From the NCBI GenBank assembly GCA_011364925.1, contig RDOA01000003.1, positions 1-64,000 of the forward strand: a stretch of DNA of 64,000 nucleotides, given 5' to 3'. The notes under the pieces were generated by a model. It saw nothing but the letters and a program-made list of their open reading frames with translations, ran no database searches and was not told where the DNA came from. Within the stretch, counting starts at the first letter, position 1. Each line of letters opens with the position of its first letter. Below are positions 6,527 through 44,072 of the stretch, piece by piece. Both the position numbers and the translations under genes were made by a program. Source of the stretch: Promethearchaeota archaeon. GTDB taxonomy: Archaea > Asgardarchaeota > Lokiarchaeia > Sigyniarchaeales > SOKP01.

Positions 6527-7762
6527 TTAGACGTTTAATAAGATTTTTGCATCTGCTTGCCACTCGACCACTTTTTTAGATGATACTCCGCTAAGAACAG
6601 AGGCAATTGCTTCAGGATCAGAATCAATCAAGTCTTCAACTGTATTTATCCCATTTTTTGCTAGATTTTTCGCAGTACCATCTCCGATTCCTCTCACTTC
6701 GACCAACGAATGTTCTCCATTAACTTTTTCTGATATTTGGTTTTCTTCAATATCATCCTCTTCCTCGAATAAAGTTTCGACTTCGAAATCCAATCCTGGA
6801 CCTTCCGAGACATCTCCTTTCTCAGTATCAGCAATTCCAACGCTTGTAATGTAAAACTCCGCTTCTTCAGGAGGTAAATCAGGAGCGTCTACGATTATCG
6901 CTCTACGCTTTAACGAATTGTTTGAGGAGAATCCCTTTGTTTTAAACATCACCCGGAAGTGACAACCATGCGCAACTATGTTTCCTCCAATAGCGTCATC
7001 GGCAGAGAACATGCCCATCATCTTAGTCGACACTTGATTGGTTAGCAGAATAGCACAATTATAGGTTTCGGCAACTCGCGATAATCCGTGAATCATGTTG
7101 TTGAGAACGCTCTGTCTACGAGCTAATAACCCGATGCCTACAAATTCTGCCCGTAAAAGCGCCATTAAACTGTCCACTACGATTAAACGCACATTCCGCG
7201 TCTTACATAGCGTTTCAGCCTTCTGGATCATTTGCATTTGGTGGTCGGACGAATAAATCCTGGCGTGGAATATTTGCGATAGCACCTTCTTAGGATCAAG
7301 TCCAAACCTTTTAGCAATTCTTTTTATTTTTTCTTTGGAAAAAGTATTTTCCGTATCTATATAAGCTACAGCTGCGCCCAAACCACCTTTCTTCTTAGGT
7401 AATTGGATCGTCACCGCGATCGTGTGAGCTAAATTCGTTTTCCCGCTTTTAAACGGACCATATACCTCGGTGAGCTTTCCTGTTTGAAATCCACCGCCCA
7501 ATATTCGATTTAGCTCAGAGGACCCGGTCGTAATGTATTCCGTGTTCTCGTCAATATCACCCGCTGCGATAAAGTCGGTCATACCTAAAGCGTTTCGCGC
7601 GTTCCAGATTAATTTCTTCGCCGTTTTATCTCCTAAACCTTCGATTTCAGAGATTATATTGTGCGGAGACATCGCAAGGGCTTCTGCTGTGCTAATTCCA
7701 CTTTCTTGAAGGAGCTTAATCTGTCTTGCGTTGATCGATTTTACTTGGTCTAAATCTGAAAT
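6527..7762 (-). CDS. radA: RadA/Rad51-family recombinase with an extra C-terminal HhH domain; probable ATT start at 7762
   Basis: Walker A GPFKSGKT, YIDTENTF, Walker B IVVDS, LTNQV, GGNIVAH. The N-terminal HhH (SDLDQVKSINARQIKLLQESGISTAEALA) extends in frame 30 codons upstream of ATG 7672. Confidence 0.9.
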   Translation of the reverse strand: MSDLDQVKSINARQIKLLQESGISTAEALAMSPHNIISEIEGLGDKTAKKLIWNARNALGMTDFIAAGDIDENTEYITTGSSELNRILGGGFQTGKLTEVYGPFKSGKTNLAHTIAVTIQLPKKKGGLGAAVAYIDTENTFSKEKIKRIAKRFGLDPKKVLSQIFHARIYSSDHQMQMIQKAETLCKTRNVRLIVVDSLMALLRAEFVGIGLLARRQSVLNNMIHGLSRVAETYNCAILLTNQVSTKMMGMFSADDAIGGNIVAHGCHFRVMFKTKGFSSNNSLKRRAIIVDAPDLPPEEAEFYITSVGIADTEKGDVSEGPGLDFEVETLFEEEDDIEENQISEKVNGEHSLVEVRGIGDGTAKNLAKNGINTVEDLIDSDPEAIASVLSGVSSKKVVEWQADAKILLNV

Positions 7763-26322: not shown

Positions 26323-26898
26323 ATGGTTTATCCCGCTAAATTTAAGCAGTTATATCAATTAATATCTGCTTTAGATAAGTTTCAAACAAGGGAAAAGAAC
26401 ACGATTAGACTTAGTAAATTAGCCACATTTCTCCAAATATCCGAAGAAGATCTAAATGAGATTCTTGAACTCGTGTTTCGATTTCAGCACTTATTTAATT
26501 CTGTATTTAAAGAATACTATCTTTTTAAAAAGTGGAAAAACAACAAAACTTGTCTGGTCTTAAAATTGAAATCGGAAGTAAAAAACCTTAATAATACCGA
26601 ACCCAAAGAGATTGAAATCAATCAAGATCAAGTCAAGGTGTTAAATGACATCGTGTATTATTTTCAGCATATTAGCATTGGAAAAGGGTTCGATATCAAG
26701 CAACCTACAACCGAATTCTCTAAAAAAGTAAAAGAACTTAAAAGAGCTCACCCGCAATTCTTTGAGTATAGAGGAAACGGATTGGTTTATCCTTCTAAAC
26801 TCGCGATTGAAGCGGGAAAACTAATATCGTTTCACAATAAGAGTAAAAAACTGATTACTAAATTGGAAGTAGAAAAATATCTCATTCAACTTGTATGA
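26323..26898 (+). CDS. putative winged-helix protein, first gene of the hef operon
   Basis: HTH-like IRLSKLATFLQISEEDL; ends 13 nt before the hef ATG. Confidence 0.6.
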   Translation: MVYPAKFKQLYQLISALDKFQTREKNTIRLSKLATFLQISEEDLNEILELVFRFQHLFNSVFKEYYLFKKWKNNKTCLVLKLKSEVKNLNNTEPKEIEINQDQVKVLNDIVYYFQHISIGKGFDIKQPTTEFSKKVKELKRAHPQFFEYRGNGLVYPSKLAIEAGKLISFHNKSKKLITKLEVEKYLIQLV

Positions 26899-26911
26899 TG
26901 GAGTTAAAGCG

Positions 26912-29065
26912 ATGATTGAATTAGAAAAGAGAGCTTACTTACGGGAGAAGCACTTAGAACATAGAGAGTATCAATTAAAAATTGCAAAAGAGTGCGTATC
27001 AAAAAATTCGCTTGTTGTTCTTCCTACTGGTTTAGGCAAGACGGTTATCGGTGTGTATGTCGCTGCGGAAACTTTAGAAAAATTCCCTTCTAAAAGTAAA
27101 ATACTCGTTTTAGCTCCGACCAGACCATTGATCAACCAACATTACGACTCTTTTAAAAATTTAATGACAATACCCGAAGACCAATTTTTAGTGTTAACCG
27201 GAAAAACCGTTCCTGAAAAGAGAGTAGAGTTGTTCCAAGAAAACCAAATAATATTTTACACACCCCAAACATTACGAAACGATTTAGTGAATAAAAAGTA
27301 CAATTTAGAAGACGTTTGTTTGATAATTTTCGACGAGGCTCATCATGCTACAGGTGATTACGCGTATACTCTGATCGCGGATGAGTATGTTGATCAAAAT
27401 CCAGACGGAACAATCTTAGGCTTGACTGCAAGCCCTGGAGCATCGAAAGAAAAGATTAAAATTTTGTGCAATAACTTACACATTCCGCTCACCAACATCC
27501 ATACCCGCACGAGAAAAGACATCGATGTAAAAACTTATTTGAAACCTATGGATGTCTACAAAATCGGCGTTAATCTTACCGAGCTTATGAGAGACGCTTA
27601 CTTAGCAATTCAAACTTTGCTAGAAGAACGATTGCAGTATCTTTCTCAACTAGGCTTTTTAACAACGAAAGCTAGTGAGCTACATACAAAAGTTATTCGA
27701 AAGGATTTAATCGCGTTAAACACAGAATTAATTCGATTAGTGAAAGGAGATGGGGATAAAACAGGAGTTTACAGCGCGTTATCTGTAAATGCTCAAGCTT
27801 TAATCTTGTATCACATGCTTGAGTTGATCGAACAACAAGGATTAGATGTATTACTGATCTATTTAATGAAATTAAAGCAGGACGCTCGAAAAAAGACTAG
27901 TTCTAAAGCAGTTAAAATTCTAGCTTCAGACCATAGAGTTAATCAAATTTACATTGAATTGAAGAAAAATGAAGATCTCTCTCCTAAACAATTGATCCAC
28001 CCCAAGTTTTACATTCTTGAAAAATTGCTCTTACAAGAGTTCAAAAACAACCCAGATTCAAGGATATTAGTTTTTGTAAAGTTGCGCGATTCGGTTAAAA
28101 ATATTGTAAACAAATTAAAGTTAAGCAATCATGAGACCATTAAGCCAACGAGGTTCGTAGGACAATCAACCAAATCGAAGGATGATAAAGGATTACCCCA
28201 GAAAAAGCAATTAGAGATATTGGAACAGTTCAAACAAGGACATTGCAATATATTGGTAAGTACTAATGTAGGAGAGGAAGGTCTGGATATAGCAGAATGC
28301 GATTTAGTTATTTTTTACGATGTTGTTGCCTCCGAAATTAGGTTTATCCAGAGAAAGGGAAGAACTGCTCGCCATCGTGAAGGGAAAGTTATTATACTGT
28401 ATTGTAAGGCAACGCACGATGAGATCTACATGAACATCGCTTTAAGTAGATTAAAGAAAATGAATATCAACCTTAAGAGCGATCAACAGTTAAAAACAGC
28501 TTATACAAGAAGTCCAAAAGAAATGAAAATTGAAGAAAGCAGTATAGAAGATTCTAAATATGAACTTCCAAAGATGGCTAAATCTCATCAGAAGCAAGGA
28601 AATTTGGAATCGTTTTTAGGTGAATCAGTCAGTCCACTCGATGTGAAGGATAATAGTCAAAAAGCGACCGAAATCAGGATAAGTCAATCTCTTCCGGTAA
28701 AATTCGGAATAAGAAAAAAACTGCAAGAAGATAACATTCCTTTCGACGTTGTAAAGTCAATCAACCATATAACATTATTCGACCGAATCATAATCCAAGT
28801 TGTAGATCCACGCCAATTCGAAGAAGGAAAGTTGATGAGAAAGATTTCTCATTTAAATAAAAAATACCCTCTTTTTATTTCGATATTTGATTTTGTGAAC
28901 TTTTCTAACGATTATCAAGACGAAGAACGGCTTCTCAAACAAAAAGTAAAGAATTGGGGTTCAATTAGCGGTTTAAAAGCGATTCCGATCGACCTTCCCG
29001 AAGAATTATATTTCATCGTTAAAAATGTATATTTACACTCAACTGTAGAACATGAGGTTTCGTAA
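26912..29065 (+). CDS. hef: Hef/FANCM-like SF2 helicase with a degenerate C-terminal nuclease-like region
   Basis: REYQ, LPTGLGKT, APTRPL, DEAHH, GLTASPG, EEGLDI, QRKGRTAR; no ERKxxxD motif in the C-terminus. Confidence 0.88.
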   Translation: MIELEKRAYLREKHLEHREYQLKIAKECVSKNSLVVLPTGLGKTVIGVYVAAETLEKFPSKSKILVLAPTRPLINQHYDSFKNLMTIPEDQFLVLTGKTVPEKRVELFQENQIIFYTPQTLRNDLVNKKYNLEDVCLIIFDEAHHATGDYAYTLIADEYVDQNPDGTILGLTASPGASKEKIKILCNNLHIPLTNIHTRTRKDIDVKTYLKPMDVYKIGVNLTELMRDAYLAIQTLLEERLQYLSQLGFLTTKASELHTKVIRKDLIALNTELIRLVKGDGDKTGVYSALSVNAQALILYHMLELIEQQGLDVLLIYLMKLKQDARKKTSSKAVKILASDHRVNQIYIELKKNEDLSPKQLIHPKFYILEKLLLQEFKNNPDSRILVFVKLRDSVKNIVNKLKLSNHETIKPTRFVGQSTKSKDDKGLPQKKQLEILEQFKQGHCNILVSTNVGEEGLDIAECDLVIFYDVVASEIRFIQRKGRTARHREGKVIILYCKATHDEIYMNIALSRLKKMNINLKSDQQLKTAYTRSPKEMKIEESSIEDSKYELPKMAKSHQKQGNLESFLGESVSPLDVKDNSQKATEIRISQSLPVKFGIRKKLQEDNIPFDVVKSINHITLFDRIIIQVVDPRQFEEGKLMRKISHLNKKYPLFISIFDFVNFSNDYQDEERLLKQKVKNWGSISGLKAIPIDLPEELYFIVKNVYLHSTVEHEVS

Positions 29066-29599
29066 ATGGAAGAAAATGCTTTTAAGAAAGATATAACACC
29101 GTATTTGATATTCGCGTGTAAAAGATGCCAGCAATATTCTTACGTTAAAACAACTCAAAAAACAAAAAAGTGTCTTAGGTGTGGGCATTCATACCAAGTA
29201 AAAGAACTGCTTAAAGAAGGCGAAATAGTGAGCGGCATATCAAATGCTGTCGATGCGGTGACTAGGAAACAAAACGAGCTCTCGGTTCCCGAGTTTAGGT
29301 CTCAAGGTGATTTTGTAATTAACACTAGCGATAAAATTCCAAAAAAACAAACCTTGCTTTATCTTCCGAAGGGAGATTTCAAAAAAAGGAATGAAGCTGA
29401 CGTGAAATTTAAAGCTCTCCTATACAATCTTTCAAATCTTTATGGAAAATTTCCAAGATATATGATTGAAATTATGGCAGAAAATAGCGGAATCTCAGGT
29501 GAAGAGATACCGCGCCTAATTGAAATCTTTGAAAAGCAGGGAATTCTCGTCCAATTAAAAGATGATGGTTTCTATTACCAAATTTCTCGCGAACATTAG
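29066..29599 (+). CDS. DUF1922-like Zn-ribbon protein with a C-terminal winged-helix-like region
   Basis: YLIFACKRC...KTKKCLRCG; abuts hef. Confidence 0.7.
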   Translation: MEENAFKKDITPYLIFACKRCQQYSYVKTTQKTKKCLRCGHSYQVKELLKEGEIVSGISNAVDAVTRKQNELSVPEFRSQGDFVINTSDKIPKKQTLLYLPKGDFKKRNEADVKFKALLYNLSNLYGKFPRYMIEIMAENSGISGEEIPRLIEIFEKQGILVQLKDDGFYYQISREH

Positions 29600-31525: not shown

Positions 31526-34045
31526 TTAATCTCCTTTGATAATCTTTTTACACAGATTAATTCCCAAACCAGTTTTTCGATCTAGAACATAGGGATTTTG
31601 CTTCTTTACTTGGGTCGCAGTGTGGAATCCCGCATTATACAGGATCCTTGCCCTAACTCTCGCTACATTATCCAACCTTAATATTAAATCAAACAATTCC
31701 TCGTGGATGCCATAATGAATTCTGATTTTAAGCGTTTCTACCATTTCAGCGATCCTTGTCATGTCTTCTTGTATTGTTAAATCTGATTCGCTTAAATGAA
31801 CTGCGATTATGCCGATAAACGTTATTATCCTTTCTATGTTGTCTTTTGTAGTGTAGAGGTCCCCAGTCATAATGTTATGGCGCTCCATTATACTGTCGAG
31901 AGACTCTTCGTCGCACCATTCCAGAATAGGTTGGAGGAGTCTGTAATCGCGCACTTTTTGTTCTGCTTTTAATACTTCATAAGCTTCTTTTACAATATCT
32001 TGGAATGTGTCTAACACAGCGTTTTCAAGTTTATATCTAATGAGCACGCCAGAAACGGGATAAAGGTACAACCTTATTATCAATTTCCCGAACTGTGAAC
32101 ACTTAATAGTCCCGTTATCCCTCAATGTAATTAAGCCTTTTTCAAACAAGTAATTTAACACATATTGGTTCTTAACTGACTTAGGAACGATATCAATCAC
32201 GTACTTTTGAAAATTGTTATCAGGAACATTTATTAAATGCAGTAAAAATGCTGTAATGTGATCGCAGAACTCAAACATAAATTGTTCGTTAGCGTAGTCG
32301 TTAGATATACCGTTTTGAAATCCGCACGAACATCGGATGCCAACATCCGTGTCGAATTCGGTATAAAATAATCCGAAATTGGTCCTTACATATCCTGATA
32401 TATTTGATTTAGATAGCTTTGTAATTTTTATCTGGTGGTGATTGCTTTTTAATTGTTGAACTTTTTGAGGATCGGAATGGAGTTTTAAAATATTAATTGG
32501 AGTGATTTCTTTAATCATAAGCAATTCGTCGATCGGAATCCCTTGTTGACCCATTTTATCTTTTATTCCGTACCAAAAGTAAGTTTTTTGGAAAAACGCA
32601 TTCAATTTCTCCAGATTGATATTTTTTTCTTCGTAAATTCGAAGGAGCACTTGTTCTTTTAATGTGTGTATCCGATTTAGCCCCGAAATTAGATCGTTAT
32701 ACTTAGGTTTATAGGTTCGCGATTGTGAAACGATTTGGAAGTAATGGTCTTCTACCCAATCTTTCTCGTCTATATCGTTTACCAACAAGTAACCAAATCC
32801 TTCATTATCTAAACCGGGTCGACCGGCTCGACCAAGCATTTGAAATATTGCATTAGCAGAAAAAGGTATGAAATAGGAAAATCCATCTCCGTTCTCGTAA
32901 TAACCAGAGAAATTTTTTATGTTGTGCCCAGAGGTAACATATTTCTTAAAGTCTTTGACTATAACTACTCGGCTAGGGAGGTTTACCCCAGCGCTTAAGG
33001 TGGTTGTAGAGCAGATGACTTTAATAATACGTTTACGATACGCATCTTCTATTAATTTTCTCTCTCGTGGAAGTAAGCCCGCATGGTGGAAAGCAACGCC
33101 GAATTTTACGAGTTTTTTAAGTTCAGAGTGTCTTCCTTTAATATTACTTAGTCTATTTTCGACCCTTTTACAAGCTTTAAGTTCAGATTCGGAGATATGA
33201 GATTTAACCAAATTTTTAAGGTTTGCTGCCATCTGATGCGTTGATTTTCTTTTATTTAAAAAGATTAATATTTGACCTCCGTTATCTAAAGTAGCTTTGG
33301 TTATTTTTTTTATTGTGGAATCTTTATTTTGGGTCGTCTCAATTCTGTATTGGAGAGGAACAGGTCGATCATCTGATGTGATGAGCGTTGTTTTATTTCC
33401 AAGAGAAGATAGCCATTCGTTAAAAAATTCAGGATTTGCTATCGTTGCTGAAAGTCCTATAATCTGAGGATTGTTCAAAAACTCGTTTAACCTTACGATT
33501 AACGACTCTAGTCGGGGTCCTCGAGATCCACTGGCGTCGCCAAGGATGTGAATCTCATCAATAATGATTGTTGAAATGTTAAAAATCCATTCTTGATCGC
33601 TAAAATTTCGTAATATTGAATCCATTTTTTCGTACGTAGTTACTAAAACATCCACATTCGCAAGTCTTGAATCGTCTATATCGTAATCTCCAATAGACAA
33701 CTCGATTTTAATCCCAAATCTGTCGTAACTTTTTTTAAAGTGTACATATTTTTCAGTTGCTAACGCTTTGAACGGAACAAGATAAATACTTTTACCGAAT
33801 TTTTGAAAAACATTATTTACTGCGCAAATCTCACCTATAAGAGTTTTACCGGATCCTGAAGGAGCGCAAACCAAAAAAGACTTTTGGAAAAATATGCCTT
33901 TTCTAATAGCTTCTTTCTGAATGTCACGTAACTTAAATATCTTTAACTCGAGAAGAACTCTTAATATCCTCTCGTCAGTAACGTATTGAAAAATCTCATC
34001 TGTTCTCTTTTTTTCTTTGGTCGGTTCCGAGTCGGTAAATTTCAT
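31526..34045 (-). CDS. Hel308/Ski2-like helicase with an inserted SWIM zinc finger
   Basis: APSGSGKT, PFKALA, DEIH, LSAT, FHHAGL, TLSAGVNLP, QMLGRAGR; insert CSC..(21)..CDH. Confidence 0.88.
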   Translation of the reverse strand: MKFTDSEPTKEKKRTDEIFQYVTDERILRVLLELKIFKLRDIQKEAIRKGIFFQKSFLVCAPSGSGKTLIGEICAVNNVFQKFGKSIYLVPFKALATEKYVHFKKSYDRFGIKIELSIGDYDIDDSRLANVDVLVTTYEKMDSILRNFSDQEWIFNISTIIIDEIHILGDASGSRGPRLESLIVRLNEFLNNPQIIGLSATIANPEFFNEWLSSLGNKTTLITSDDRPVPLQYRIETTQNKDSTIKKITKATLDNGGQILIFLNKRKSTHQMAANLKNLVKSHISESELKACKRVENRLSNIKGRHSELKKLVKFGVAFHHAGLLPRERKLIEDAYRKRIIKVICSTTTLSAGVNLPSRVVIVKDFKKYVTSGHNIKNFSGYYENGDGFSYFIPFSANAIFQMLGRAGRPGLDNEGFGYLLVNDIDEKDWVEDHYFQIVSQSRTYKPKYNDLISGLNRIHTLKEQVLLRIYEEKNINLEKLNAFFQKTYFWYGIKDKMGQQGIPIDELLMIKEITPINILKLHSDPQKVQQLKSNHHQIKITKLSKSNISGYVRTNFGLFYTEFDTDVGIRCSCGFQNGISNDYANEQFMFEFCDHITAFLLHLINVPDNNFQKYVIDIVPKSVKNQYVLNYLFEKGLITLRDNGTIKCSQFGKLIIRLYLYPVSGVLIRYKLENAVLDTFQDIVKEAYEVLKAEQKVRDYRLLQPILEWCDEESLDSIMERHNIMTGDLYTTKDNIERIITFIGIIAVHLSESDLTIQEDMTRIAEMVETLKIRIHYGIHEELFDLILRLDNVARVRARILYNAGFHTATQVKKQNPYVLDRKTGLGINLCKKIIKGD

Positions 34046-34106
34046 TAACGAGATTTACAATCACCAAGATCTATTACATGTTCTTAACTTATCTCCAAAT
34101 TTAAAG

Positions 34107-34214
34107 AAAAAAAAAAAGTGTTCGTGCCAAAGTACAAGCCCATCTAATAAGGATTAGAGATACAGATGTTTATGACATTTTGGGCTAAAATTTGACAAGA
34201 ACAATCTAGGGTGT
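34107..34214 (-). ncRNA. candidate structured ncRNA or leader (three-way junction) with its own TATA box and U11 tail
   Basis: Nested stems 34203-34191/34131-34119 and 34186-34181/34142-34137 enclose two hairpins. A G-U pair favours the minus strand. Confidence 0.5.
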
Positions 34215-34296
34215 ATCTAATATTTAATACAGAGAATCTATATAAACAAAAATTTTATCTGAACTTGTCTAATTTGTCTAAAATGGAAAAATCTCT

Positions 34297-34819: not shown

Positions 34820-36538
34820 ATGACAAATGTGTTTGAAAATGCTCAGAGATTAGATGCCGAAGAACTCAAGGAAAAACCACTAAAATCGGATTTAACGGAA
34901 GATTTAACTATAATTAATGGAATTGGTCCCAGTACCGCTTCAAAGTTAAATAAAGCTAATATCAACACGATCAAACAGCTTGCAGATATTACGCCGAGTG
35001 AGCTTTCAGTAATTTCTGGGGTTAGCATCAATGCAGCACAAAAATTCATATCTGAAGCCAAAAACCTTCTTCCTGGATACGATTTTGAAACATTCGATGT
35101 TGCAGAGATATATTTTGAAGAGAAATTCCTACAAGAAGATAGTAATGGAGACTCAGAAATGTTCACATCTTCTCAACAAGAGGATCCCTCAATTTCAGAA
35201 AATCAATCGCAAGAGCATGAGTTAGTGATCGAGCAAATCCAAGATCGATCTCAGGAACAAATGGAAAATACATTCAATGAAGAATCTTTTATGGTTGAAG
35301 AACCTATATTCTTAGAAGAAGACTCTCGTGAAGAAACTCCGCTTGTTCCTGAGATACATGAAATGCAGGAGATTGAAACTATTCCGGAAGCATTCGAATC
35401 ATCAACAGAATTAGATATATTTGAGAATATGGTCGAACAATCGTTGAGAGCATCAGGATACTATATAATTCCAAATTCAATTAACTCATTAAACTCTATT
35501 ATGGATAATATTGACTATCTTGGATGTAAAGTTGTTCGCGTTTCGAGAAGTATCAACCACATTATCATAATTCCAATTAAGCTTTTAGATGTGGAAGAGA
35601 CCGTTTTAGTTAATGAATCGCAACTAAATTCTACTAATGTCGATTCTAGGAATAGGATACGACATTGTTATAAAGATTTATTAAAAACTGGAGATTTAAT
35701 ATTCGATGATATTTTGAACGACAATAAGCTCCGGGAATTCTTTCAAAAATATTTGCAGGTGAACTTAATACTTGAAAAAAGCGTAGAAAACAAAAAATTA
35801 TTTTTCATATCTGGTCAAACTCAGTATAAGATATTAATCGAACCAATTCTGGTCTGTAGAACGCCCCCAAGATGCATGGAAAAATCCATTTTGTTTCCAT
35901 ATCAAAGAAATACCAATGTTCATGTCGTGCAACACTCTTATTTATCCCAACTATTAGATTTTATAGAGCAAAAATACGGTTTTATCGAAACTCGCGGAAA
36001 AAGTTCGAATCCTGTCGAGGATTACCAGAAAAAAGACCATAAATTTCGAACAAACGTACGAGTCATTTCAATTCCGGTAATAGGCTATGCTATTGCGTTA
36101 GCAGTTATTTATTTCGCGGAACTCTATTTCTTGCTTAGGCTATTTAATAGTATTGGGTTTGCTATCGTAGGGATTTATCTCACAATGTTAAGCTACTTAT
36201 ACTCCAAGTCTTATAAAGCGAAAAAACAACTCGCCCTCGAATTTGAAACGCCGTATTACCTGCAAAATTTAGAATTTAGCGAAGCTGATTTATTAGAGTT
36301 TAAAGATATGTTCTCTACTGAGCTTTTAACGCAATTTGGGTACGAATGTTTTGGAAAAGAGAAGAGGTTCAAAGTTTTAGATAAGGTTGAGCAAGAAGAT
36401 TATATGAACAGCCTTCAGAAACATAAAAAAGAAGATATGTCTCATATCGTACACGAATCGAATAAAACTAATAAAAATTTTTTAACAGACGAAAATCCCG
36501 CTTATAACAGTAAGTATCTCTCATTCTTAGAAGATTAG
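34820..36538 (+). CDS. membrane-anchored helix-hairpin-helix protein
   Basis: DLTIINGIGPSTASKLNKANINTIKQLA (Rad51-N-like HhH), acidic linker, globular domain, two TMs. Confidence 0.75.
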   Translation: MTNVFENAQRLDAEELKEKPLKSDLTEDLTIINGIGPSTASKLNKANINTIKQLADITPSELSVISGVSINAAQKFISEAKNLLPGYDFETFDVAEIYFEEKFLQEDSNGDSEMFTSSQQEDPSISENQSQEHELVIEQIQDRSQEQMENTFNEESFMVEEPIFLEEDSREETPLVPEIHEMQEIETIPEAFESSTELDIFENMVEQSLRASGYYIIPNSINSLNSIMDNIDYLGCKVVRVSRSINHIIIIPIKLLDVEETVLVNESQLNSTNVDSRNRIRHCYKDLLKTGDLIFDDILNDNKLREFFQKYLQVNLILEKSVENKKLFFISGQTQYKILIEPILVCRTPPRCMEKSILFPYQRNTNVHVVQHSYLSQLLDFIEQKYGFIETRGKSSNPVEDYQKKDHKFRTNVRVISIPVIGYAIALAVIYFAELYFLLRLFNSIGFAIVGIYLTMLSYLYSKSYKAKKQLALEFETPYYLQNLEFSEADLLEFKDMFSTELLTQFGYECFGKEKRFKVLDKVEQEDYMNSLQKHKKEDMSHIVHESNKTNKNFLTDENPAYNSKYLSFLED

Positions 36539-36663: not shown

Positions 36664-37611
36664 ATGACGCAAAAAATAGTCTTAATAATCGGGTACCCGG
36701 CTTCTGGAAAAACCGTAGCTGCTAAAAAGTACGTAGATCAAGGTTATCACCGCTTAAATCGCGACGAAATAGGGGGCAAATTAGATGATCTTGTTGATCA
36801 CTTAGAAAGATTACATAAAGACAAGGGGATATCTAATTTCGTCATGGACAATACATATTCGACTAAAAAATCTCGTGAGAGCGTTGTTCGATGGGCTCGT
36901 GAAAATAATTTCGAGATAGTGTGTGAGTGGATTGATCTAGATGTGGGAGACGCTCTCTATAACGCCGCACAAAGAATGATTAACACATACGGAAAAATAT
37001 TGACTCCCGAACAAATTAAGAATTGTAACGACATAGGAGTTTACCCTCCAGTGGTGATTTACAAGATACGGAAAGCTTTTGAAGAACCGAATATTGAAGA
37101 AGGGTTCAATAATGTTGTAAGAGTTAAATTTAAGCGAGAATTAGATAAATCTGTATATACAAATAAAGCAATTGTGTTAGATTATGACGGAACATTAAGA
37201 ACGACAAAATCGGGGGAAAAGTATCCTAAAACTCCCGACGACATTAAAATCCTTCCTAATAGAACTGAAATCCTAAAAAGATACGTAAAGGAAGGATATT
37301 TATTGTTAGGCGCTTCGAATCAATCTTTTGTTTCTAAAAAAGTAATGACTGAAGAACAAGCAATCGAATGCTTTGATAAATCAAATAAATTGCTAGATTT
37401 GAATATAGATTATAAGTTTTGCCCACACCCTTCGTATCCTCAGATTTGTTATTGCCGAAAGCCTATGCCGGGAATGGCTGTGGAGTTTATAGAAAAATAC
37501 AAGTTAGATCCATCGCAGTGTATTATGGTTGGAGATTCGAAAACGGATAAAACCTTTGCTAACCGTTGTGGATTTCAATACATTAAACCTGAAGTGTTTT
37601 TCAATAAATAG
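36664..37611 (+). CDS. bifunctional polynucleotide kinase / HAD-IIIA phosphatase (PNKP-like)
   Basis: GYPASGKT..RLNRD..MDNT kinase half; DYDGT..ASNQ..CPH..CYCRKP..GD...D phosphatase half. Confidence 0.8.
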   Translation: MTQKIVLIIGYPASGKTVAAKKYVDQGYHRLNRDEIGGKLDDLVDHLERLHKDKGISNFVMDNTYSTKKSRESVVRWARENNFEIVCEWIDLDVGDALYNAAQRMINTYGKILTPEQIKNCNDIGVYPPVVIYKIRKAFEEPNIEEGFNNVVRVKFKRELDKSVYTNKAIVLDYDGTLRTTKSGEKYPKTPDDIKILPNRTEILKRYVKEGYLLLGASNQSFVSKKVMTEEQAIECFDKSNKLLDLNIDYKFCPHPSYPQICYCRKPMPGMAVEFIEKYKLDPSQCIMVGDSKTDKTFANRCGFQYIKPEVFFNK

Positions 37612-38130: not shown

Positions 38131-38251
38131 GAGTAAACTTTGTGTTTTTTTTTATAAAATTATCTTTTAGAATGAATAGCCATTTATTAACCTCTAAGCG
38201 TTAGAAATGTTTTTTGAGAGATTGACTACATTTAAATTTTTTATTAGAATT

Positions 38252-38264
38252 TTTTCCTTTATAT
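38252..38264 (+). promoter_or_regulatory. TTTTCC+TATA promoter motif of the VirB4-like operon
   Basis: TTTTCCTTTATAT; TATA starts 55 nt before ATG 38313. Confidence 0.65.
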
Positions 38265-38312
38265 ATTTCTACCCTCTTATATGATATAGGAATTATAAGA
38301 GTTTAGTTCAAT

Positions 38313-39062
38313 ATGCCGATAAATTTTAAGTCAGTTTGCAAAGGACTATTTGTAATTGGGTTACTACTGGGATTTGTTTCTGTCTTCTTAGATTGGTATT
38401 ATTTACAGGGTATTAGTGATTCTGGAGAAACAGTAGTGTGTTGGATTTACAATGTTTTGTTTGACTGGAGCACCCCCTTTTCCGAGGGTGCGTTCTTCAA
38501 CGAAACGTACCAACCAAAGAACGCAACAATGCCGGTTTTGATTATTATAGTTTTTCTTATTACACTGTTCGTGTCTACCTATTCTGTGTTATTTCACGAT
38601 GTTGAACGAGGAGATAAGTTGTTAAAAGTAAGAAAATTTAATTTCGTAAACTTGTCATTGGTGATGTTATTTGGTTTCTTTATATTAGTATTCCCTTTAT
38701 TTTTTTTGTTGCCAAACGGCCTTTATTACCCGTATTTATTGTTTCATGATTACGATTTAAACATCACATTTTACTATTCAATTGGTCCTGGCTATTTTAT
38801 TCAGTTCATCTCTTTTAGCTGTACGTTTCCCTACGCTTTATTTAATCACTCTGTCATTACTACTTTCGATAAGGAACAATCCAGCGTAGAAAACACAGTT
38901 AATCGATACATTTCAAGCGTTCGGGAGGAGTTGGATTTAGACAAACTTATCGCCAAGGAAGAATTCGAGCTTGAATCGACAAATAGTACCCAAAGTCAAG
39001 TTCCTAAAAGTCAAGAGGAAGAAATTTACGAGGATTTTTTAGCAACTAGGGGGAGAAAATGA
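38313..39062 (+). CDS. 4-TM membrane protein with an acidic cytoplasmic tail
   Basis: Four hydrophobic segments; ATGA overlap with the next gene. Confidence 0.75.
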   Translation: MPINFKSVCKGLFVIGLLLGFVSVFLDWYYLQGISDSGETVVCWIYNVLFDWSTPFSEGAFFNETYQPKNATMPVLIIIVFLITLFVSTYSVLFHDVERGDKLLKVRKFNFVNLSLVMLFGFFILVFPLFFLLPNGLYYPYLLFHDYDLNITFYYSIGPGYFIQFISFSCTFPYALFNHSVITTFDKEQSSVENTVNRYISSVREELDLDKLIAKEEFELESTNSTQSQVPKSQEEEIYEDFLATRGRK

Positions 39063-39913
39063 ACGAACAACTGTTGGACTTAAAATTAAAAAGGTTGATT
39101 CAACTTTGTAGAGAAACTCAAAACTATAAAAAGTTAGCGGTTGTTAGTTTTGTTCTTACAAGTAATACAGTTGACGAGATCGGGATTAAGCTTGGGATGA
39201 GACCGAGAGAAAAAAATGCTGGCGAAAAGATTTTTGAGTATATGGAGCTCGTGAACAAAGTTTTTTCACTCAATTTTAATATAAAGGTGTTTAAACCTGA
39301 GATTGTCGAAGGGCTCTCCCAAATCGAACTTCTATTCCTCAAAAAAGAAGGGGAAATAGGATTAGAATACATAAGAGAAGTTTTTGGTATTTACTACGAA
39401 CTTAGGAAGCTAGAAGTTCCTAATTTGCACGAGAACTTAAACTCAGACATATTAGATCGGAATAGGGCAATATCGTTATTTTCGTTCTTATCTGGAGGGC
39501 AGAGCTCGCGAAAGAATAAAGACGGGGCGTTTAATCCGATCCTTCTGCACAAAATTAGAGAAGAAGAAAAAGCTCTCCAAATTCAGCTCGAGCGAGAGTT
39601 CGATAAGGACACTTTCGAGAAGATCTTACACCTCAAAACTATGAGAAAAAACATCGAGCACCGTTCCAAGGGAAAAATTGTTATTTCCGGCTCATTAAAG
39701 GACAATATATCCTATAGGCAATCAAAAGAAAGAATTGGACAGTTTTTAATCTTCGGACTGATTGTATTATTCGCTATGATTGGAATTATAACTGCAATCG
39801 AATCATTCATGTATGGTGTGTTATCAGAAGCTATTGGTTATAACATGCTTATCTGTTTTGGAGCAATAATCGTGCTCTATTTTATTAATAAAAGCTACTA
39901 TAGGAGAGGGTGA
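39059..39913 (+). CDS. helical protein with two C-terminal TMs
   Basis: Overlapping start/stop codons with both neighbours. Confidence 0.75.
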   Translation: MNEQLLDLKLKRLIQLCRETQNYKKLAVVSFVLTSNTVDEIGIKLGMRPREKNAGEKIFEYMELVNKVFSLNFNIKVFKPEIVEGLSQIELLFLKKEGEIGLEYIREVFGIYYELRKLEVPNLHENLNSDILDRNRAISLFSFLSGGQSSRKNKDGAFNPILLHKIREEEKALQIQLEREFDKDTFEKILHLKTMRKNIEHRSKGKIVISGSLKDNISYRQSKERIGQFLIFGLIVLFAMIGIITAIESFMYGVLSEAIGYNMLICFGAIIVLYFINKSYYRRG

Positions 39914-42900
39914 TAAATAGTTTGGTAAAATCGTACGCGCACATGTTAAAAAATTCAGATAAAAAGAAAGGTAAAACTTTTTCGGCAGAATTTACTAAAA
40001 TAGACGACCAGGAGAAGAAATTTTTAAAGATTTGGAAAGTTAATCCGTCTTATAAGGACATAGAAAAAAAAGAAACTCTCCTTAAGACGGGTTCTCTAAC
40101 AATCCTTGGATTTATATTTTTTAGCTGTGCGCTATACGCAACGAGGAACCTTGTTTTATCGATTATCATTACTTCTATTATCGTGATTAGTTACGTTGTA
40201 GTATTTCATAAAAGTATTTTTAGCTTGAAACATGTTTTCGAGTTTAAATCCTTCGATCCTTTTCAAAAACTCGTATTCTGGCAACCAATATACGACAAAT
40301 CCATCTTATTTTTTACTAATCATAAAGACTTGACTACAACAGGAATGAGAATATTTCAGATCAAAGTTATCCCTGAAAACGTTCACGCAAACTTGAAACG
40401 ATTCATTAAAGGTTTGCATGCCGTAAAAGTGCCGTATTCTTATCAAATTATTCAAAAGCCTTTGCAAATTGCTAATGACACGCGTTCTGGGGCACAGATT
40501 TCTTCGTTCGAAACCTTAATCTACTTCAGCACTTTTTACTTCTTCAATGGGAGAGTAACCGAATCAAAAATGCTAAAACTCGTCGAATCATTGCGAGAGT
40601 ACACAGTATCTTTACAATCAGCTTTTGCTTCTAACTTTCACCACTTTAAAATCGCGCTTTTAACTGAGTCAGAGTTGATAGAAGTATTTAGAAATTCGGT
40701 TTTGAAACAAAATATAGGAATAGAAAACGAATCTACTAACGCCTCACATAAGCCTTATACGCATGAAAAAGTTAATTCTATTATAAAGCTTATTTATATT
40801 CTTTCGATCGTAATATCTCTTGATTTCTTTCTTTTAATTTTAAGCTTCCCTATAGGAATCCGGATATTGTTAATCGCTTTTATTATAGCAAGCTCAATTT
40901 TAATTTGGTGGCGTGAGTTGCTGTTCCAAGTTAACAAAGGAAAGCTGTTTAAATCGAAAGATATTGAAGTTCTGGCTCCCTTTTCGGGAATTCAGTTCTA
41001 TAAGTCTAGTAAAACGCCAGAAACTCTTTTTTTCAAGGCCAAGGGAAGTTTAATTGGAGGATTAAAGATGCTCAATCTTAATTTTAGTTATCCTCCTTCT
41101 TACTGTTCTCCCGATAAATTTTACGCGGCGTTAATTAGGGATAGTATGCCCTTTACAGTTACTTTTCAGTTAAGACCGTTAACCTTCAGCCAATTTGATA
41201 AAGAGGGATTTAAATACTTAAGAGATAACATAAAGAAAAAGCTGCTTTCTAAAACAGAAAAGTTCATTGACGGTAATAATTGGCTTAGCTTACGTTCGGG
41301 AATTTGGAGCACTATCGGAACGTATTCCACATGCGTAGTGTTTAATTCTCCGGATTTCACCTATGAGTTAGTGGATAAGATGGAACAAAAGCTAATTACC
41401 CAAAAAACGGTTCTATACAACACATTTAAGCAATTCTTCACTAATTTCGAAATTATTCCTCTTAGACATAATAAATTGGAGGCGGGGTTTCTGTTCGAAA
41501 ATTTGAAAAATAAGTTTTTCTTAAGAAATGGAACTCATCTAAATTACATATTATACCAAGGTATAAACTTATGTTATATAGCAGCGTTATCTGACCAATT
41601 TAAAAAGGGAGTAGAAACAAAGTTAGCAACAGAATTCAATACACCGTTACAATTAACTAACTACGTTACGGTAGGAAATACGATTAATACCGAATTCCTT
41701 GAAGGAGAAGTCCCAGCAGGATTTCTATTAAATCAACTACGAAACATACTTATCACAAATGGAACTTACTCGAATCGAGAATTACTTGCTCAAAAAATCG
41801 TAATCGAACTAGTTAAAATGGGACATAACGCGGTAATCTTCGATTTTACGGGGAACTGGTCTAAAGTTATGAATTGGTTTAGAGGAACTCGATATGAAGA
41901 TCAATTCATATACCATAAATTAGGCAAAACATTTGTGATCAATCCTCTTCGTTCTGGGATTCCTTACGATACTGATAATCCAGGATTTTTAGATTACATG
42001 CTCGATGTATACGCTATGTGCTTTAAAAAAGATGAAAAAACTATAGAAACTTTTAGGAACACCATCTTACGCAACCCAGATATCGATGTCTCCACACTCG
42101 TTTTGGATTTAACTACTATGCGTGAATGGGATAAGTCTGCTGTAACTGACACGTTGCTTTCTTTTTTTAAAGAATTTACGCCACACGATTCGAATTTTAT
42201 TCCCCAGCAACAAGTTGATACTCAGGATAATACTTTTGCTTACGAATTTATCACTAATGATAAAACGGTAATAATTGACCTTTCAGATTTAAACGATTAC
42301 GATAAACAATGCTATTTCTCTTTTGTAGCAATTTCTAAATTCATTCACTATTTAAAAACTGGAAAATCCTTTAATCCCAAATTTATAGTGATGCCGCACA
42401 TTGACATCATCTTCGATGGATTTTTCCTTGAAAGTAAAATTCAGTACGGTAAAATTGATAAGTTTTTCAGACCACTACTTGAAAACAATTTTGGGACTAT
42501 ATTCTCTGCGTCTCAGATTAGGTATCTTCATACCAATGTGTTTAACTTCTTAGTTAATATTGTGGCATTTCGGGCAACCGATAATCGAGACATCGCAGTA
42601 TTTAACGGTCAGATGAACTTAGAGAGCCTTCATGGAGTAGGGTACTACAGCACTAGTAGAAACGAAGGATATCAAGCGAGGTACATTGGGAACATGAAAC
42701 AAGACGAAGCCGTAGTTAAAAGAGATGATATTTATCAATCTTTTCCTGTTAAGTTTGATTTAGACGACATTCGAAATATGGAGCCGCTATCCTGGCAAGA
42801 AATCGTAAGTTATATGAAAAATCAAGGCTACGATCTTGAGAATACTGAACGAAAAGTCATGAAGAGGGCTCAGACAACGCTATTTGAATCCGATTTCGCG

Positions 42901-43686
42901 GGTTACAGCAACTTAGTTGACGGTATTATTAAATTTTTAAACAACCTCCAAGCAGTAGATAAAGTGGGAAATATGTACAGAAAGAAAATAAGGGAAGAGC
43001 TCCAAAAGGTATTACACCCTTACATTTTAAAAATAACTCGAGAGAAAAAAAGAGAAAAAGATATTGTTGATAGAGTGTTCGCTATTTTAATTAGACAGCA
43101 ATACTTAATAGAGAGCCATCCCAAAAGAGCGAGCGGTTCAGAATCGATGCAAACATCGTTCGCGGTCGGTCCACGATATCAAAAAGTTTTAAAAGATTAC
43201 TACGAATCCCGGGACAGCTCAATCATCAGTTACGAACCAATAGATCTCGAATCCGATATAACACCTCAAACAGAGCGTACGAATACTACTAATTTAAAAA
43301 ACGCGTTAACAGAACACTTTGCACCTATTCTATATTACGAATTTTTCAATATTCATAAATTCATCGCTCAGCAAAAATACGAAAAAGCTTTGAAAATAGC
43401 AAAAACGCTTCTGAGAAGATATCTTTACGAAGTTTACAATAGCTATTATAGCGTTGATTACACAATAACGAGCGCAGACATAAATAAATTTATAACTCTT
43501 ATGACCACTACAGAGAATTTTCCATTTACAGAAAAGGAGTTAAGCACATTCTTGTCTATGTGTGATGAAATTACTCCGGACGAAAAGAACCTAAAGCAAC
43601 AGAGTAAAAACTTATTCAACTCTTATTCAAAACTTTTCAACAAGTTCAAATCCTACTTAGAAGGAGAGGTGGAAGTAGTATCGTAG
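39910..43686 (+). CDS. membrane-anchored VirB4/HerA-like protein with degenerate Walker motifs
   Basis: AVIFDFTGNW, FVINPL, VIIDLS, GTIFSASQ, N...NIVAFR. The Walker A position reads ITNGTYSNRE and Walker B reads FIVMPHID. The N-terminal 2TM+domain module is duplicated. Confidence 0.65.
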   Translation: MINSLVKSYAHMLKNSDKKKGKTFSAEFTKIDDQEKKFLKIWKVNPSYKDIEKKETLLKTGSLTILGFIFFSCALYATRNLVLSIIITSIIVISYVVVFHKSIFSLKHVFEFKSFDPFQKLVFWQPIYDKSILFFTNHKDLTTTGMRIFQIKVIPENVHANLKRFIKGLHAVKVPYSYQIIQKPLQIANDTRSGAQISSFETLIYFSTFYFFNGRVTESKMLKLVESLREYTVSLQSAFASNFHHFKIALLTESELIEVFRNSVLKQNIGIENESTNASHKPYTHEKVNSIIKLIYILSIVISLDFFLLILSFPIGIRILLIAFIIASSILIWWRELLFQVNKGKLFKSKDIEVLAPFSGIQFYKSSKTPETLFFKAKGSLIGGLKMLNLNFSYPPSYCSPDKFYAALIRDSMPFTVTFQLRPLTFSQFDKEGFKYLRDNIKKKLLSKTEKFIDGNNWLSLRSGIWSTIGTYSTCVVFNSPDFTYELVDKMEQKLITQKTVLYNTFKQFFTNFEIIPLRHNKLEAGFLFENLKNKFFLRNGTHLNYILYQGINLCYIAALSDQFKKGVETKLATEFNTPLQLTNYVTVGNTINTEFLEGEVPAGFLLNQLRNILITNGTYSNRELLAQKIVIELVKMGHNAVIFDFTGNWSKVMNWFRGTRYEDQFIYHKLGKTFVINPLRSGIPYDTDNPGFLDYMLDVYAMCFKKDEKTIETFRNTILRNPDIDVSTLVLDLTTMREWDKSAVTDTLLSFFKEFTPHDSNFIPQQQVDTQDNTFAYEFITNDKTVIIDLSDLNDYDKQCYFSFVAISKFIHYLKTGKSFNPKFIVMPHIDIIFDGFFLESKIQYGKIDKFFRPLLENNFGTIFSASQIRYLHTNVFNFLVNIVAFRATDNRDIAVFNGQMNLESLHGVGYYSTSRNEGYQARYIGNMKQDEAVVKRDDIYQSFPVKFDLDDIRNMEPLSWQEIVSYMKNQGYDLENTERKVMKRAQTTLFESDFAGYSNLVDGIIKFLNNLQAVDKVGNMYRKKIREELQKVLHPYILKITREKKREKDIVDRVFAILIRQQYLIESHPKRASGSESMQTSFAVGPRYQKVLKDYYESRDSSIISYEPIDLESDITPQTERTNTTNLKNALTEHFAPILYYEFFNIHKFIAQQKYEKALKIAKTLLRRYLYEVYNSYYSVDYTITSADINKFITLMTTTENFPFTEKELSTFLSMCDEITPDEKNLKQQSKNLFNSYSKLFNKFKSYLEGEVEVVS

Positions 43687-43733
43687 TCCAAGACCAGAAA
43701 AGAAGAACCTACGAGCAAATCATAGAAAAAATT

Positions 43734-44072
43734 GTGTTCGACGAAGATGAATTAAACAAACTTAAAGATAAAATTCGGGATTTAGTCGAGGGTAAGATTC
43801 AAGCTAAGCAGCTTAAACAAAATTTGTTGCAATCAAGAGATCGTATAGTCAAAGATTTATCGAAATTTTTAATTTTTTGCATCGAACGTGTGGAAAGTAA
43901 CAATCAAAATCGAAACCTTGAAAAAAACTCGGCTTCTAATAAACCAGATTTGGAATTTGAACGATTACGTAAAGATATAGCAGAAAAAAATGAGTTTTTA
44001 GAAATCGTTGCTAAAAAAGTTGATAATCTTGTGTCTAAAGTTAAGGTCGCTAATAAATCTGAAATTTCATGA
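43734..44072 (+). CDS. coiled-coil protein, last gene of the operon
   Basis: 112 aa, heptad-rich. Confidence 0.65.
   Translation: MFDEDELNKLKDKIRDLVEGKIQAKQLKQNLLQSRDRIVKDLSKFLIFCIERVESNNQNRNLEKNSASNKPDLEFERLRKDIAEKNEFLEIVAKKVDNLVSKVKVANKSEIS

Follow-up and report, generated by a model that had tools for sequence, protein, structure and literature searches.

VirB4 is the one universal part of conjugation and type IV secretion machines, in which it is normally an essential ATPase. The closest systems described in archaea, Ced and Ted, arose by domestication of type IV secretion systems (T4SS), import DNA, and are linked to recombination genes (PMC9905601), and in the Sulfolobales, CedB and CedD each have half of a VirB4 N-terminal domain (PMC11868833). 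In Rickettsia, VirB4b (RvhB4-II) has an altered nucleoside triphosphate (NTP) cleft and has been proposed to be a gate or stabiliser that does not power transport, and VirB4 active-site mutants still stabilise their partner proteins (PMC2653234). For Asgard archaea, our full-text literature search found no paper that describes a protein like VirB4 or a system derived from a T4SS. In this report, we focus on g3, a protein of 1258 residues encoded in a cluster of four genes (g1 to g4) on a 64,000-nucleotide stretch of DNA from a Promethearchaeota archaeon—positions 1 to 64,000 of contig RDOA01000003.1, assembly GCA_011364925.1, hereafter the window—and follow up by computational analysis an earlier note that had read g3 from its sequence as a VirB4/HerA-like pseudo-ATPase. 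The predicted structures indicate that g3 is a complete VirB4 homolog, its ATP site is replaced in all the relatives that we examined, and its family is linked in many genomes to a non-canonical Hel308-like helicase.

With VirB4 and TrwK (7o42, 7o43, 8rtb, 8rtd, and 4ag5), g3 shares the same two-part architecture, and its N-terminal transmembrane (TM) hairpin is predicted to occupy the position of VirB3 in VirB3-VirB4 fusions. It differs from VirB4 in that Walker A and B are replaced, a second TM hairpin splits the N-terminal domain, and a conserved, probable winged-helix region and a helical tail of ~160 residues are added. Unlike a T4SS, the locus is chromosomal and Asgard-wide, with no recognisable VirB2, VirB6, VirB8, VirB9, VirB10, VirD4, or relaxase. 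There are parallels with Ced and Ted (CedB/CedD in Sulfolobales, TedB in Thermoproteales): these membrane proteins of archaea are also chromosomally encoded and derived from VirB4, recombination genes are associated with them, and their partners are small TM-hairpin and polytopic membrane proteins, and forms with half of the N-terminal domain occur in both, as CedB/CedD there and as ~780-residue one-module and split forms here. However, we detected no similarity in sequence to the parts of Ced or Ted, searches with the g1 and g2 sequences gave no CedA1/TedC-like pilin or CedA/TedA-like channel, and a Hel308-like helicase takes the place of HerA/Rad50 as partner. Furthermore, import is described as powered by the ATPase CedB, whereas the ATP site of g3 is lost. 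In this last respect g3 resembles Rickettsia VirB4b, a conserved full-length VirB4 with a substituted NTP-binding cleft. However, VirB4b coexists with an active VirB4a within a complete T4SS, while no active VirB4 was found in this genome (PF03135 matches nothing in it, and PF12846 matches only on an unrelated contig), and the phylum-wide g3 family has no form other than the dead one. Finally, HerA—in HerA-NurA, Sir2-HerA/Nezha, and DUF4297-HerA—and DndH-C have an ATPase-fold domain like that of g3, but g3 differs from HerA by its membrane embedding, by the loss of its catalytic motifs, and by a region before the ATPase fold that models as VirB4-type α/β modules, where HerA has a HAS-barrel domain, and no NurA, Sir2, or DUF4297 partner was detected at its locus.

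Results

The N-terminal part of g3 (39910-43686, + strand, GTG start) is built of two successive modules, each consisting of a TM hairpin followed by an α/β module. Hairpin 1 (residues 59-106, 40084-40227) was placed by hydropathy and by an AlphaFold2 (AF2) model with helices at model residues 2-20 and 23-40, and is followed by α/β module 1 (residues 107-285, 40228-40764). Hairpin 2 (residues 286-339, 40765-40926), seen by hydropathy and in AF2, precedes α/β module 2 (residues 340-560, 40927-41589). The internal duplication that the earlier note had noticed is borne out by profile comparison of residues 59-285 with 286-560 (hhalign probability 98.8%, E 1.2e-16, 219 columns). What this duplicated part corresponds to is suggested by an AF2 model of residues 59-560, with a predicted local distance difference test (pLDDT) score of 84. 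Of its 14 significant Foldseek matches, 13 are to chains of TrwK/VirB4 from plasmid R388 (E 1e-9) and the 14th is to an unrelated enzyme (E 2.9e-3). In VIA-align, model residues 57-502 superpose on TrwK 15-397 with a Z of 26.5 and a root mean square deviation of 3.7 Å over 324 aligned residues, compared with a Z of 12.7 for the next unrelated match. Both modules together thus superpose on the full TrwK N-terminal domain, each module being one half of it and hairpin 2 lying between the halves, which argues for the whole VirB4 architecture and not for a HerA core only.

The C-terminal domain (residues ~570-965, 41617-42804, +) is predicted to have a RecA-like fold of the HerA/VirB4/DndH type, spanning residues ~578-957. 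The AF2 model of residues 540-1000, made from an alignment of 34 sequences (pLDDT 81), matched HerA 4d2i (E 1.8e-12) and VirB4 4ag5 (E 2.1e-9) in Foldseek, as well as DndH-C and TrwB. Its VIA-align Z scores were 24.7 for DndH-C, 24.3 for VirB4 4ag5 (333 residues), 23.9 for HerA, and 22 for TrwB, with FtsK motor domains also among the structural matches at Z 14. At the sequence level, a family profile was needed: the profile matched the HerA of Sir2-HerA (8j4u, E 2.5e-4) among PDB sequences, where a search with g3 alone found no match, and neither PF03135 (CagE_TrbE_VirB), PF12846 (AAA_10), nor any other Pfam or NCBIfam model matched g3. Foldseek, VIA, and the family profile therefore agree on the fold that the earlier note had assigned, a RecA-like domain of the HerA/VirB4 pattern. 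Its idea of a HerA-like core stands, but the two modules, which it had taken for an additional oddity, together make up a complete VirB4 N-terminal domain. Beyond this domain, conservation delimits a post-ATPase region (residues 1000-1100, 42907-43209, +) with the motif YL-E-HP-RASGSE, followed by a poorly conserved helical tail (residues 1101-1258, 43210-43683, +). The post-ATPase region is probably a winged helix, on the weak evidence of PadR/winged helix-turn-helix matches at the equivalent position in short relatives and of MAGE-domain matches in 3 of 29 members.

The second notable finding concerns the ATP site. VirB4 and HerA proteins share the consensus hhhh-GxxGxGK[ST] for Walker A and hhhh-DE for Walker B, the places of which are taken in g3 by NILIT-NGT-YSNRE (residues 612-624, 41743-41781, +) and FIVM-PHID-IIFD (residues 825-836, 42382-42417, +). 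At the Walker A position, an Arg replaces the Lys and the glycine-rich loop is gone, the predicted strand-to-helix loop being three residues long in the AF2 model. At the Walker B position, which aligns with the LLLEEAH motif of HerA in a hidden Markov model alignment, Pro-His replaces Asp-Glu, with a conserved Asp three residues on. The FD..GE[YW] motif has likewise lost its Glu. None of this is peculiar to g3: NGxxxxRE and PHID are kept in 32/32 full-length relatives aligned, down to ~35% identity, while one-module and split forms have GG[TS]xxxR instead of a P-loop, and GK[ST] is absent across the superfamily. Among one-module relatives, hhhhD[DE] is often still present where Walker B is expected. 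Five charged residues, namely Arg 623, Asp 645, Lys 810, Asp 832, and Arg 917, show no or almost no variation. The Lys of Walker A and the Asp-Glu of Walker B that had been reported missing from g3 are thus replaced in every relative examined, and since the replaced motifs are common to all, the replacement is, judged from these alignments, a conserved family trait and not decay. We rejected the possibility that g3 is a decaying pseudogene on the same grounds, its reading frame being intact and the substituted motifs being kept down to 35% identity.

The distribution of the family was surveyed in 301 Asgard genomes, 68 of which belong to the window's own family. More than 120 full-length Asgard homologs of g3 are known, all annotated as hypothetical, and all named homologs are Asgard proteins. 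The full-length form is present, usually as a single copy, in 54/68 genomes of the window's own family (50-54/68 for the operon) and rare elsewhere in the sample, whereas a profile of the g3 domain finds matches in 135/301 genomes, including 51/76 and 6/6 in two other families, and in 1744 clusters at E<=1e-3 among 1.8 billion representative proteins. Three forms can be distinguished: one of ~1260 residues with two modules, as in g3; one of ~780 residues in which a single TM hairpin and module are joined to the ATPase fold and a winged helix; and a split form in which a gene for ~285 residues, matching g3 residues 101-277, precedes a gene for ~530 residues. The single modules of shorter relatives are slightly nearer to g3 module 2 than to module 1. 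In the window's own family, g1, g2, and g4 are syntenic with g3, and a ThiF-family gene, convergent with g4 in the window, and a gene for 411 residues are also conserved neighbours of the operon. Given this high prevalence, these syntenic partners, and these stable neighbours, the operon has a stable place in the chromosome, is apparently inherited vertically, and belongs neither to a mobile element nor to a variable island. The cluster had been called host-encoded for lack of a relaxase or integrase nearby, and it is indeed chromosomal and conserved, with neither gene, nor VirD4, among the neighbours scanned. Some genomes of the window's own family have two or three full-length g3 paralogs and one g2—G008 (contigs C47, C59, and C76), G168 (C22 and C23), and G138 (C200 and C185)—so the extra g3 copies are without operon partners.

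The partner that recurs with the VirB4-like gene is a Hel308-like helicase, represented in the window by a non-canonical protein of 839 residues of the type linked to this system (31526-34045, - strand). Linkage was assessed by comparing by eye the tables of genome positions obtained with the profiles of helicase and g3. In at least 40 genomes with the one-module form, the helicase gene lies <=2 kb from the VirB4-like gene, which it overlaps at three loci (L038, L039, and L045), and in ~33 genomes of the window's own family it is 6-16 kb away on the same contig. Exceptions are mostly on short contigs, two of them (G204 and G144) looking real. In G144, a nearly closed genome of 10 contigs, g2 adjoins the helicase (C5:218845-225986) and the g3 homolog is elsewhere (C10:108322-111660); this is a rearranged version of the locus. 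The linked helicases score 350-390 bits against Hel308 models over the motor half only, and that of the window, with 391 bits over the motor half only, is below every equivalog cut-off. Thor-type genomes have two Hel308-like genes, of which the unlinked one scores 853 bits end to end and the linked one 352-369 bits over its motor half. In a tree of 29 helicases (IQ-TREE quick search, LG+G4), the canonical Hel308 proteins form a clade with 100% support that excludes the window helicase, and a topology forcing the window clade together with the canonical clade is rejected by the approximately unbiased (AU) test (p-AU 1.4e-4). A single clade of linked helicases plus a sister-family copy is not rejected (p 0.48), this grouping having been defined after the tree was seen. 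That the window helicase would be an ordinary Hel308 is therefore unsupported by its motor-half-only scores, by the tree, and by the AU test. It also matches HamB profiles (E 4e-44).

One further Hel308-like match, the sole other one in this genome, is a protein of 892 residues (G000:C22:45476-48154, L044:476-3154) with an N-terminal extension of 240 residues, which Hel308 models match over ~270 residues only. A promoter-like box (34239-34253, -) lies ~190 nt upstream of the ATG of the window helicase, a distance that implies either a long leader or a small RNA in 34046-34253 (-).

Enzymes of DNA recombination and repair form a wider context for the VirB4-like and helicase genes. In a Thor-type genome, the pair lies in a long co-directional operon among genes for a RadA-like protein, XPD, two RadB-like proteins, and an XPG/FEN1-like nuclease, and XPD and RadA-like neighbours recur in other lineages. 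Such an operon at L045:1352-16831 (G075:C1) comprises ~14 co-directional genes, including unannotated proteins of 249, 147, 150, 204, 198, 488, and 305 residues around the pair; in BLAST searches, the accessory genes of the Thor type showed no similarity to g1, g2, g4, or the helix-hairpin-helix (HhH) protein described next. In the window, a gene upstream of the operon (34820-36538, +) encodes an HhH protein of 572 residues with an HHH_5 match, an N-terminal HhH of the RadA-N type, and a TM region at residues ~411-457. Its counterparts at three other loci (L001-L003, 29-54% identity) are directly upstream of g1, and it is probably part of the g1-g4 module. Between the HhH gene and the operon lies a polynucleotide kinase-phosphatase (PNKP)-like gene with AAA_33 and PNK3P/HAD domains (36664-37611, +), which is not kept at the equivalent position in L001-L003. 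The earlier note had suggested that an active partner ATPase might be encoded elsewhere. Intact ATPases of the HerA type do exist, at least three of the five HerA/DUF87 genes elsewhere in the genome having an intact Walker A, but none is linked to the operon.

The remaining operon proteins have no match in Pfam, NCBIfam, or PADLOC (nor does g3), weak matches to DUF1878, STAS, PRD, and others being below cut-offs and dismissed. g1 (38313-39062, +, 249 residues) shows three strongly hydrophobic segments and a fourth, weak one by hydropathy, so that three of the TM segments attributed to it are clear and one is faint. Its loops have N-x-S/T sequons, its C-terminal tail is acidic, and it is kept upstream of g2-g3 in 29 related loci. 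g2 (39059-39913, +, 284 residues) has a conserved cytoplasmic domain of ~220 residues followed by a C-terminal TM hairpin, in line with its description as a two-TM protein, and its profile is found in 50/68 genomes of the window's own family, nearly always in single copy, and essentially nowhere outside it. g4 (43734-44072, +, 112 residues) is hydrophilic, rich in Lys, Glu, and Leu, lacks a TM segment, and is kept downstream of g3 in 15 loci. For g1, there was no match among PDB sequences, and the ESM Atlas gave only its own cluster of hypothetical Promethearchaeota proteins; for g2, there was no known-family match and no usable ESM Atlas match. Profile searches of PDB with g1, g2, and the C-terminal region of g3 gave matches at chance level only. 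No effector domain (nuclease, Sir2, or HEPN motif) was found in g1-g4, and the HEPN-type Rx4-6H motif is not conserved in g2, g4, or the g3 tail.

The four genes are co-directional in the list of open reading frames (ORFs; 38313-44072, +), in a window with a G+C content of ~34% and named homologs that are Asgard, of the Promethearchaeota/Lokiarchaeia type. Both junctions among g1, g2, and g3, which had been described as overlapping at their start and stop codons, overlap by 4 nt (ATGA between g1 and g2, GTGA between g2 and g3). An alternative TTG at 39922 may be the true start of g3, as it would give the MVKSY start seen in orthologs and the length of the closest homolog, 1254 residues. A pattern search found a promoter-like box ~48 nt 5' of the g1 ATG (a T-run plus TTTATATA, 38249-38265, +). 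The general pattern ATTTTT-N1-3-TTTAWATA has nine copies in the window (at 1032, 1760, 34239, 34775, 38249, 45030, 47683, 53736, and 57023), compared with 0.16 expected. Since it occurs before unrelated as well as related genes, it is not specific to the g1-g4 system: we rejected a shared promoter peculiar to that system, and the box looks like the strong general promoter of this genome, a T-rich element resembling the transcription factor B recognition element plus TATA, and not the mark of a regulon. Elsewhere in the window, a RadA/Rad51-family protein 30 kb from the operon (6527-7672, -), with its HhH C-terminal rather than N-terminal, may be an extra RadA paralog. A superfamily 2 helicase of 724 residues with DEAD and helical-bundle "RNA helicase" domains (26891-29599, +) shows translational coupling to a small zinc-ribbon protein (DUF1922/DUF5817).

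Discussion

The picture that we propose for these observations, and to which we give an even chance of being right, is that g3 is the non-catalytic VirB4-type hub of a membrane module for DNA handling, by exchange or import, in which the helicase is the likely motor. g3 would form a membrane-embedded ring or hub of a chromosomally encoded complex with g1, g2, and g4, and would act as a gate or docking platform rather than a motor. The motor's part would most likely fall to the Hel308-type helicase paralog, and the task would most likely be DNA import or exchange at the membrane, supplying homologous recombination with a logic like that of the crenarchaeal Ced and Ted systems, themselves domesticated T4SS. 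A bolder version is possible, if on balance doubtful, in which a phylum-wide, vertically inherited Asgard apparatus moves chromosomal DNA between cells through an ATP-dead VirB4 conduit, and a Hel308/HELQ-type helicase together with RadA-, XPD-, and FEN1-type enzymes pulls it in and recombines it.

Several points weigh against this proposal. That g3 has no ATPase activity is read from its motifs and predicted structure, and the Arg that is conserved in place of the Lys could form part of an unusual site for a nucleotide or phosphate. A part in DNA binding or transfer is likewise a role that we infer for members of this family, and the winged helix is a weak assignment. g1, g2, and g4 resemble nothing known by sequence, and no part of a T4SS, such as a VirB2-like pilin or a VirB6-like channel, was recognised in sequence searches. 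In the window itself, the helicase gene is divergent and lies upstream at a distance of 4.3 kb from g1 and ~5.9 kb from the g3 start, and unrelated-looking genes intervene (a PrcB-like gene, the PNKP-like gene, and an ORF of 165 residues). The free tree leaves the window clade unplaced relative to the other linked helicases, and their grouping in one clade was named post hoc. Moreover, canonical Hel308 was not found in this genome, which is rated 100% complete, which agrees with a report that most genomes of Lokiarchaeota lack it (PMC10946056). The linked helicase may therefore have housekeeping duties as the Hel308 of the lineage, in which case its linkage could be inherited synteny.

The C-terminal domain of g3 matches DndH-C and the HerA of Sir2-HerA and DUF4297-HerA no less well than VirB4, HamB profiles match the helicase, and some genomes have two or three g3 paralogs, all of which would suit a conflict or defence system. 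In it, a HerA-type ring and a Hachiman-like (HamB-type) helicase would together sense invading nucleic acid or thread it at the membrane, in the manner of Sir2-HerA, DUF4297-HerA, and DndFGH. We nevertheless find this unlikely. The HamB similarity is that of the general Ski2/Hel308 fold, the N-terminal domain of g3 is specifically of the VirB4 type, no PADLOC model matches g1-g4 and no effector domain is present in them, the companions in other lineages are recombination enzymes, and the high prevalence and stable neighbours are unlike those of a variable defence island. The same VirB4 architecture, with its built-in TM hairpins, could belong to a T4SS-like platform for a surface filament, protein export, or cell-cell contact, with no DNA substrate and a dead VirB4 that stabilises its partners, as would fit the extracytoplasmic loops of g1 with their glycosylation sequons and the structural roles of VirB4 that are independent of ATPase activity (PMC2653234). 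A platform of this kind seems improbable to us, as the genes conserved alongside g3 encode a DNA helicase, an HhH protein, and enzymes of recombination, its operon has no active assembly ATPase, and no gene for a pilin-like or secreted substrate was recognised.

The two other explanations that we considered turn on g3 itself. Were g3 still an NTPase through a non-canonical site, with Arg for Lys and the conserved Asp 832, it would itself be the motor. The five (near-)invariant charged residues and the hhhhD[DE] often present at Walker B in one-module relatives speak for such a site, but the glycine-rich loop has given way to a predicted loop of three residues, the Glu of FD..GE[YW] and both Walker B acids are replaced, and GK[ST] is lacking in the whole superfamily, for which reasons we judge an active g3 improbable. 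Less probable again, and in our view very unlikely, is an FtsK-like anchor holding the chromosome at the membrane for segregation or repair at the division site, with no transfer between cells. The order of TM region, HerA/FtsK-fold domain, and probable C-terminal winged helix does parallel FtsK, whose motor domains are among the structural matches, but FtsK scores are far under those of VirB4, HerA, and DndH, the N-terminal domain is of the VirB4 type, and no division genes are nearby.

Selection has maintained a complete VirB4 architecture throughout Asgard archaea while its ATP site is replaced, and this architecture is paired with a separate lineage of Hel308-type helicases. The pairing may explain the reported lack of canonical Hel308 in most Lokiarchaeota genomes (PMC10946056) and, if functional, would represent a different way to power the passage of DNA through a T4SS-derived conduit. 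At the same time, a large family of hypothetical proteins, comprising more than 1700 representative clusters, gains a name and a testable role.

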